From Malacoraja senta (taxonomy: Eukaryota): 64,000 nucleotides of DNA. A program made the position numbers and the translations under genes. The notes beneath the pieces were generated by a model. That model was not told the origin of the DNA, ran no database searches, and saw nothing but the letters and a program-made list of their open reading frames with translations. Below are positions 966-57,505 of the stretch, piece by piece (position 1 is the first letter of the stretch; each line of letters opens with the position of its first letter). The stretch is from positions 28,150,001-28,214,000 of the forward strand of contig CM075987.1 in NCBI GenBank assembly GCA_038087875.1. The letters are read 5' to 3'.

Positions 966-1010
966 TTTATTTGCAAGTAGTAGGATATGTGCTAACTATC
1001 AACCTTTACA
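966..1010 (+). CDS. Exon, 45 nt ([15 protein letters not shown]); may really start at the upstream acceptor at 897
   Basis: ttgtttctcctttctaacag|TTTATTTG...CCTTTACA|gtaagc. NYQP recurs in the 21200 exon. Confidence 0.55.

Positions 1011-57505: not shown

Follow-up and report, generated by a model that had tools for sequence, protein, structure and literature searches.

Positions 966 to 57505 of the window, the 64,000-nucleotide stretch of the Malacoraja senta genome that was analyzed (contig C11:28,150,001-28,214,000, + strand, in an assembly of 1.94 Gb), are assigned, with a probability of about 0.85, to the 3' third of one protein-coding gene, which is the orthologue of LOC129712172 of the skate Leucoraja erinacea and has the architecture mapped below. 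The gene spans ~163 kb (C11, about 28,044,789-28,207,505, + strand), and encodes a signal peptide, a Ser/Thr-rich ectodomain of ~100 residues, an invariant transmembrane region (CDCS...EGNERAVVAVLGLLSLLCI), and a ~650-residue cytoplasmic tail. The tail, from the transmembrane exon on, is encoded by ~36 exons, 15 upstream of the window and 21 within it. Since every one of them is in phase 2 and has a length divisible by three, the reading frame would survive the skipping or duplication of any tail exon.

The exons of the window were recovered by scanning for AG...GT segments that are open in phase 2, and then by a tblastn search of the skate protein against the window. At the exon lengths given in the original prediction, the scan brought up near-identical peptides of the form ..QSDY..LPLSE..APS, together with the 162-, 69-, and 72-nt exons, and the remaining pieces, including the mini-exons, were placed by tblastn. 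The features of the window are the following:

966-1010 (+), 45-nt phase-2 exon; its orthologue is the cassette skipped in skate isoform X3
5448-5471 (+), 24-nt phase-2 mini-exon (..QHLEGP..); scan and tblastn
6181-6207 (+), 27-nt phase-2 mini-exon (YYPDATRS) with a GC-AG intron donor; border reading
11601-11624 (+), 24-nt phase-2 mini-exon (NFQGERS); tblastn and border reading
21200-21226 (+), 27-nt phase-2 mini-exon (NYQPVDRS); tblastn
22491-22517 (+), 27-nt phase-2 mini-exon (TDNQFNQQ); tblastn
25585-25611 (+), 27-nt phase-2 mini-exon (SFQSAQIS); tblastn and border reading
25828-25914 (+), 87-nt phase-2 cassette exon, skipped in skate isoform X4; tblastn E 2e-14
32555-32581 (+), 27-nt phase-2 mini-exon (SHYEDDGT); tblastn and border reading
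34019-34180 (+), 162-nt phase-2 exon, longer than any other in the window and with 87% identity to the skate protein; tblastn E 2.4e-24
35701-35772 (+), repeat exon 1, 72 nt, L type (LQSDY...); scan and copy alignment
about 36248-36319 (+), dead ninth copy of the repeat exon, H type, outside the frame; copy alignment
38655-38726 (+), repeat exon 2, 72 nt, H type; scan and copy alignment
40258-40320 (+), repeat exon 3, 63 nt, I type; scan and copy alignment
41108-41179 (+), repeat exon 4, 72 nt, H type; scan and copy alignment
43179-43241 (+), repeat exon 5, 63 nt, I type, identical to exon 3 at 63 of 63 nt; scan and copy alignment
44383-44454 (+), repeat exon 6, 72 nt, L type; scan and copy alignment
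45028-45099 (+), repeat exon 7, 72 nt, H type; scan and copy alignment
47110-47172 (+), repeat exon 8, 63 nt, I/F type; scan and copy alignment
52965-53033 (+), 69-nt phase-2 exon, conserved as far as the sawshark; scan and tblastn
54810-54881 (+), 72-nt phase-2 exon encoding an acidic tract followed by EFFTATS, Phospho-FFAT-like; scan and tblastn
57481-57505 (+), terminal coding exon (..FNDLSLN) with the stop codon TAG at 57503-57505; tblastn
57584-57589 (+), AATAAA, putative polyadenylation signal; sequence

The borders of these exons are AG acceptors and GT donors, with one GC donor after 6207, and all are in phase 2. The joined frame remains open to the TAG, and the other two frames contain 45 and 10 stops. 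The original prediction, made by reading the sequence without tools, had listed 20 of these exons with their lengths and order, and had joined them into a single open frame closed by the TAG at 57503 and followed by the AATAAA at 57584, with the other phases stopped. The frame was borne out and the 20 exons were recovered exactly, whereas the 87-nt cassette (25828-25914) and the dead copy (~36248-36319) had been missed. These results indicate that a chain of 20 exons of 24-162 nt, which is invisible in any list of open reading frames (ORFs), is recoverable by tool-less reading, and that the chain so read was correct. The intron that follows the 6181-6207 exon begins with GC (6208-6209, AAG/GCAAGA), where the paralogous mini-exons have GTAAGA.

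Among 5.8 billion proteins searched, the 162-nt exon matched a single one, isoform X2 of LOC129712172 (P0001; E 7e-20, 88% identity). The joined window peptide aligns end to end with residues 402-794 of skate isoform X1 (341 of 397 columns identical, 5 gap columns), and the match is collinear, exon by exon, down to a common C-terminus. The Leucoraja protein (isoforms X1-X4, XP_055516397-400) has its exon-sized segments in the same order and shares that C-terminus, and contains the same 8 repeat units in the order L-H-I-H-I-L-H-F, with 86% identity over the window's part. The differences are that repeat unit 2 is shorter by 3 residues in Leucoraja, that five repeat units have Glu in the Malacoraja genome and Asp at the same position in Leucoraja, and that one upstream 27-nt exon exists in a second, identical copy in Malacoraja.

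This end-to-end collinear match to a database protein refutes the explanation that no gene is present and that open segments bounded by AG...GT line up by chance, which retains a negligible probability. Single mini-exons are indeed weak in tblastn (E 0.04-49), as such a concatenation would have it, but each of the eight skate mini-exon peptides gave one + strand match, unique and collinear, at these exons, with 1 extra match on the - strand, compared to 0-6 scattered matches in total in ten locally shuffled windows. In a strict splice-pattern scan for phase-2-open exons of 18-36 nt, 9 segments were found on the + strand, 7 of which are these mini-exons, versus 2 on the - strand.

The long introns, of up to 9.6 kb, are also compatible with exons split over two or more genes or transcripts, for example with a separate 3' transcript that carries the repeat array. 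Such a split is very improbable, since the segment order, down to a common C-terminus, is shared by all four skate isoforms and by the sawshark protein, no start context or stop is present inside the exons of the chain, all of which are in phase 2, and no other multi-exon gene was recognized among the 114 long ORFs of the window. The chain is instead collinear with a single predicted Leucoraja erinacea protein, in agreement with the single gene that had been proposed.

The N-terminus, which had been expected to lie upstream of the window together with ectodomain exons, was found at C11:28,044,789-28,146,359, on the same contig and 3.6-105 kb upstream:

C11 28,044,789 (+), alternative first exon; 9 of 9 residues match the skate
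C11 28,046,563 (+), signal-peptide exon; 19 of 22 residues match the skate
C11 about 28,055,200 (+), ectodomain exon; mapped with the skate protein
C11 28,061,418 (+), small exon; mapped with the skate protein
C11:28065747-28065908 (+), transmembrane exon, 96% identical to that of the skate
C11 between 28,097,969 and 28,146,359 (+), 15 tail exons, 15 of 15 of which admit phase-2 borders and a length divisible by three

Both the signal peptide and the alternative first exon of the orthologue are thus present at the 5' end, and the invariant transmembrane block lies upstream on the same contig and strand as the window's chain. The symmetric-exon pattern, with lengths divisible by three, a single phase, and paralogous members, holds for 21 of 21 tail exons in the window and for 15 of 15 upstream.

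The upstream part also contains two local peculiarities. A 27-nt tail exon (LPPSSSPM), which occurs once in the Leucoraja models, is present twice, at C11:28121690-28121716 and C11:28124788-28124814, 3.1 kb apart. The copies are identical, as are at least 60 nt of the flanks on either side, and reflect either a very recent duplication of the exon or an artifact of the assembly. In addition, a basic motif, (R/T)KYR(S/P)D, is located ~30 residues before the membrane (residues 78-84 of protein P0004) and is conserved in the skate, the devil ray, the electric ray, and the catshark; the orthologous exon of this region lies at about C11:28055350-28061440. By its consensus, the motif may be a proprotein-convertase or shedding site.

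The gene is already predicted by NCBI in the related skate, yet it is unnamed and unpublished: no publication was found in the literature on the four LOC identifiers of the family. The gene had been called hidden, which holds for the ORF track only, because an NCBI model exists in a relative. A search of the joined peptide against proteins and families, proposed earlier as a check, yielded LOC129712172 and no Pfam family, and the earlier statement that no gene name can be assigned still applies, as the orthologue is annotated as an "uncharacterized protein".

The surroundings consist largely of repeats. The window has a G+C content of 36-50%, with LINE fragments throughout. For its 114 ORFs of at least 85 residues, 11 Pfam matches were obtained: 7 to reverse transcriptase, 1 to a LINE-type endonuclease, 1 to ALKBH8_N, which lies over its cut-off, and 2 below the cut-off, namely a GDSL lipase-like domain, as is also found in the downstream LINE, and a low-complexity match. 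The intron after the cassette exon contains a tandem array with a 13-nt period (26638-27500, at least 44 overlapping copies), whose - strand has long open repeat frames in which no Pfam match was found. A (CT)n-rich microsatellite of ~500 nt occupies 17040-17610 in the 9.6-kb intron. The 20 kb downstream contain LINE sequence and one Phostensin-domain exon on the opposite strand, which is too little to name an orthologue in other vertebrates. This ORF (C11:28231056-28231292, - strand), ~23.5 kb past the end of the gene, matches the C-terminal end of Phostensin (PF13914, E 6e-9), and probably forms the final exon of a PPP1R18/TPRN-like neighbor in convergent orientation.

Non-fibrillar collagen genes have exon sizes that are multiples of 9, and the exon sizes of 27, 45, 63, 72, and 162 nt share this property. 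A collagen-like gene is nevertheless rejected outright, because the peptides are rich in Ser, Gln, and Arg rather than in Gly and Pro, and because a six-frame scan found no Gly-X-Y run at any exon and only 7 short runs elsewhere.

For the encoded protein, isoform X1 of the skate shows three hydrophobic stretches: the signal peptide, the transmembrane segment at ~106-135, and the segment of the 87-nt cassette. The ectodomain contains NxT sites and is rich in Ser and Thr. Ser, Pro, Gln, Arg, Asp, and Glu are abundant in the tail, whose hydropathy falls below the charge-hydropathy boundary, on the disordered side. The Atlas model of the whole orthologue has a mean pLDDT of 0.37 and a pTM of 0.15, and no Pfam family was found in the protein at E<=1. 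These properties suggest that the tail is probably intrinsically disordered, in line with the modular, probably disordered C-terminal region that had been proposed from the exon structure.

A phmmer search of 1.84 billion representatives at E<=0.001 returned 8 proteins, namely the query itself, six elasmobranch proteins, and one plant protein (P0011, E 7e-4), the last of which matched through a proline-rich repeat and was taken as spurious. A profile of nine family members gave 6 matches among 8000 candidates scored, exclusively in elasmobranchs. No family member outside the elasmobranchs was detected by Pfam, phmmer, the family profile, or Atlas features and structure (scores <0.9, TM <0.5). 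Within the reach of these searches, members of the gene family occur in sharks and rays alone, and all of the relatives are annotated as "uncharacterized" or with automatic look-alike names.

The proteins of Pristis pectinata (LOC127582304), Mobula hypostoma (LOC134359957), Scyliorhinus canicula (LOC119955955), Narcine bancroftii, and Pristiophorus japonicus have the ectodomain and the invariant CDCS/EGNERA.../transmembrane/PRLLH block in common with the skate protein. The sawshark, Pristiophorus japonicus, additionally shares the mini-exon segment, one QSDY-like unit, and the last exons. Conversely, the 8-unit QSDY array, the 87-nt Cys-rich segment, and the EFFTA motif are missing from the elasmobranch relatives beyond Leucoraja. 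When the proteins of the skate, sawfish, devil ray, catshark, electric ray, and sawshark are compared, 31 invariant columns emerge, and each of these falls within CDCS...EGNERA.VA.LGLLSLLCI.T..AG.VL...P.LLH..L, and the transmembrane block is conserved far above any other part of the protein. Because this block is so strongly conserved, a contact with a partner in or at the membrane is inferred, and the conserved transmembrane and juxtamembrane part probably anchors the protein to such a membrane partner.

Whole tail exons also vary among predicted isoforms. In the skate, isoform X3 lacks exactly the orthologue of the 966-1010 exon, isoform X4 lacks exactly the 87-nt exon, and isoform X2 has another first exon. 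Fifteen predicted sawshark isoforms (numbered to X41) differ only in the presence of 16 different in-frame blocks, each 9-28 residues long, and no aligned column is mismatched. All of these isoforms are automatic database predictions for species other than Malacoraja; they agree with the potential for in-frame skipping that had been pointed out, and suggest by homology that the tail exons may be spliced in a similar manner in Malacoraja senta.

For the 87-nt cassette, the encoded segment is hydrophobic and contains five Cys residues in the midst of the disordered tail. Its 19-residue Kyte-Doolittle mean is 1.8; the usual transmembrane threshold is 1.6. The cassette is single-copy in the genome and is absent from the sawshark protein, and a transposon origin was discarded, as its only match in the genome is to itself. 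Inclusion of the cassette could re-attach the tail to the membrane, as a palmitoylated anchor or a hairpin, or change the topology, as a second transmembrane segment. If the cassette threads as a second transmembrane segment, the last ~300 residues would lie on the other side of the membrane.

Two exon families in the window were formed by tandem duplication, an old one of 24/27-nt mini-exons and a young one of 63/72-nt exons, as seen from the repeat families D3, D4, and D7 and from alignment of the copies with their flanks. The mini-exons are alike only in the exon and its immediate splice context (..tttctag/...ATCAAG/gtaagat), and their wider flanks are 40-48% alike, which is unalignable. 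Since the mini-exon peptides are recognizable in the sawshark (block E 4e-7) while the wider flanks have diverged, the mini-exon array appears to be old and kept by selection.

The young array contains 8 live exons and 1 dead copy in the order L, (dead H), H, I, H, I, L, H, I/F, which fits duplication of L-H-I or H-I blocks, and its intron flanks are 76-99% alike. The array is older than the split of the two skates, because its eight units recur in identical order in the other species. In the dead copy at ~36248-36319, the acceptor TAG has become TAA and 4 nt are deleted, and the donor and flanks still show 83-91% likeness to those of the live H copies. The species-specific Glu/Asp common to five units and the identity of exons 3 and 5 over all 63 nt point to homogenization of the array (concerted evolution), probably by gene conversion.

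Pairs of the same type differ at 29 of 477 exon positions versus 270 of 1823 flank positions (Fisher p 1e-7), an excess of exon identity that splicing signals or conversion tracts could equally explain. The exon differences within types comprise 25 non-synonymous and 4 synonymous changes, counted over non-independent pairs, and because they are mostly non-synonymous, the paralogues do not establish that the peptide is under constraint. When all paralogue pairs are taken together, the exons are only slightly more alike (identity 0.867) than the flanks (0.834 and 0.806).

These two observations would also be expected if, in a real gene, the repeat array were a near-neutral, fast-evolving disordered spacer, whose exons are kept because they are frame-neutral and well spliced, rather than for any binding by their peptide motifs. 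Consistent with such a spacer, one repeat copy has already decayed, identity to the other skate is 86% for the tail versus 96% for the transmembrane exon, and quite different exon types were amplified in each lineage. The sawshark, with its single QSDY-like unit, has amplified 9-10-residue FPSS/RSSLTQDR units (FPSSxSxVQ/RSSLTQDR-type) instead, and Mobula and Pristis have amplified a 12-residue ILRxSSPSFHDK unit that is related to single upstream skate exons. However, frame, length class, and splice sites are kept in all 8 live copies, nearly every copy in both skates retains QSDY and LPLSE..APSQ, and the mini-exons and the last three exons are recognizable in the sawshark even though the intron flanks have fully diverged. 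A near-neutral spacer is regarded as rather unlikely, although it is the most substantial of the rival explanations.

The alternative to a spacer, in which the tail functions as an array of motifs, is put forward at roughly even odds. In this proposal, the gene would encode a type I membrane protein, and its disordered tail in the cytosol would consist of a series of short linear motifs, with about one motif in each exon. The motifs would provide multivalent docking or phosphorylation sites, with QSDY, YxxI in the H-type exons, and (R/K)-rich...LPLSE...APSQ as the candidates, and their number would depend on exon copy number over evolution and, in the individual animal, on cassette splicing. 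Within the repeats, QSDY, LPLSE, and APSQ are preserved best, and the H-type units keep Y-x-x-I in both skates, a pattern that fits the consensus of tyrosine-based sorting or SH2-type docking motifs. The basic run before S-L-P resembles a basophilic-kinase or 14-3-3 site. This RRxS-like site is not fixed, as Ser is replaced by Leu in 4 of the 6 H/I units of Malacoraja.

A further candidate motif is encoded by the penultimate exon (54810-54881). Phospho-FFAT motifs are defined, in the available portion of PMC7705450, by a Ser/Thr at the fourth core position, and mediate binding of partners such as Kv2.1 and STARD3 to VAP/MOSPD2. The acidic tract followed by E-F-F-T-A, with Thr at the fourth core position, conforms to this sequence definition. 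The motif is placed on the cytosolic side because the protein has a signal peptide and one transmembrane segment. Within the wider family, it was found only in the window and in the 4 Leucoraja isoforms (as EFFTARS), and is absent from the other family proteins that were scanned, including that of the sawshark. A complex prediction for residues 1-130 of thorny-skate VAPA with residues 745-794 of the skate tail scored 0.14, against a mark of 0.34, which speaks neither for nor against binding. MSP-domain exons are present in the Malacoraja genome. The Phospho-FFAT-like motif is retained as a lead, as a putative VAP/MOSPD2 ligand.

Combining these elements, the family could be an elasmobranch-only membrane scaffold in which exon choice sets the number of QSDY/LPLSE modules, the re-anchoring of the tail to the membrane by the 87-nt cassette, and, in skates, an ER-VAP tether through the Phospho-FFAT-like motif, with lineages retooling the scaffold by amplifying other exon types. 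This combined scheme is speculative and, taken as a whole, improbable.

In its overall layout, the protein resembles the transmembrane adaptors of the LAT/PAG/LIME1 type and other single-pass proteins with short ectodomains, which likewise combine a small extracellular part and a single membrane-spanning segment with a long disordered tail in which Tyr motifs recur. Its neighbors by Atlas features include LIME1, opalin, TMEM154, and syndecan-type tails, with scores of 0.84-0.87 (0.85 for the adaptors) that serve as leads only. Membership in the adaptor group was rejected, as no Pfam family was found at E<=1 and no such protein appeared in the phmmer or profile searches. The protein differs from these adaptors in that its juxtamembrane Cys residues are not conserved among its relatives, and in that its ectodomain is mucin-like and far longer than that of the classical adaptors.

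The kind of architecture found here, with tandemly duplicated symmetric exons that encode disorder, is already known. The PEVK region of titin is a tandem array of symmetric exons encoding disordered repeats, and the two systems are alike in that short exons of one phase, with lengths divisible by three, are arranged in tandem and can be skipped in frame. There is no sequence relation between them, and they differ in that the array described here encodes the tail of a membrane protein rather than a sarcomeric spring, is of phase 2-2, and has splicing that is predicted. The general principle that symmetric exons encode disorder, and tandem exon duplication itself, are treated in the available portions of PMC3632108 and PMC9013439, respectively. 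Overall, nothing known is overturned, and the near-invariant transmembrane block suggests a membrane partner. Set beside these systems, the gene is a clean natural example of a disordered tail evolving via tandem duplication of frame-neutral exons, in which an old mini-exon array adjoins a young, homogenizing one with a decaying copy, and in which the exon type that was amplified differs among skates, rays, and sawsharks.
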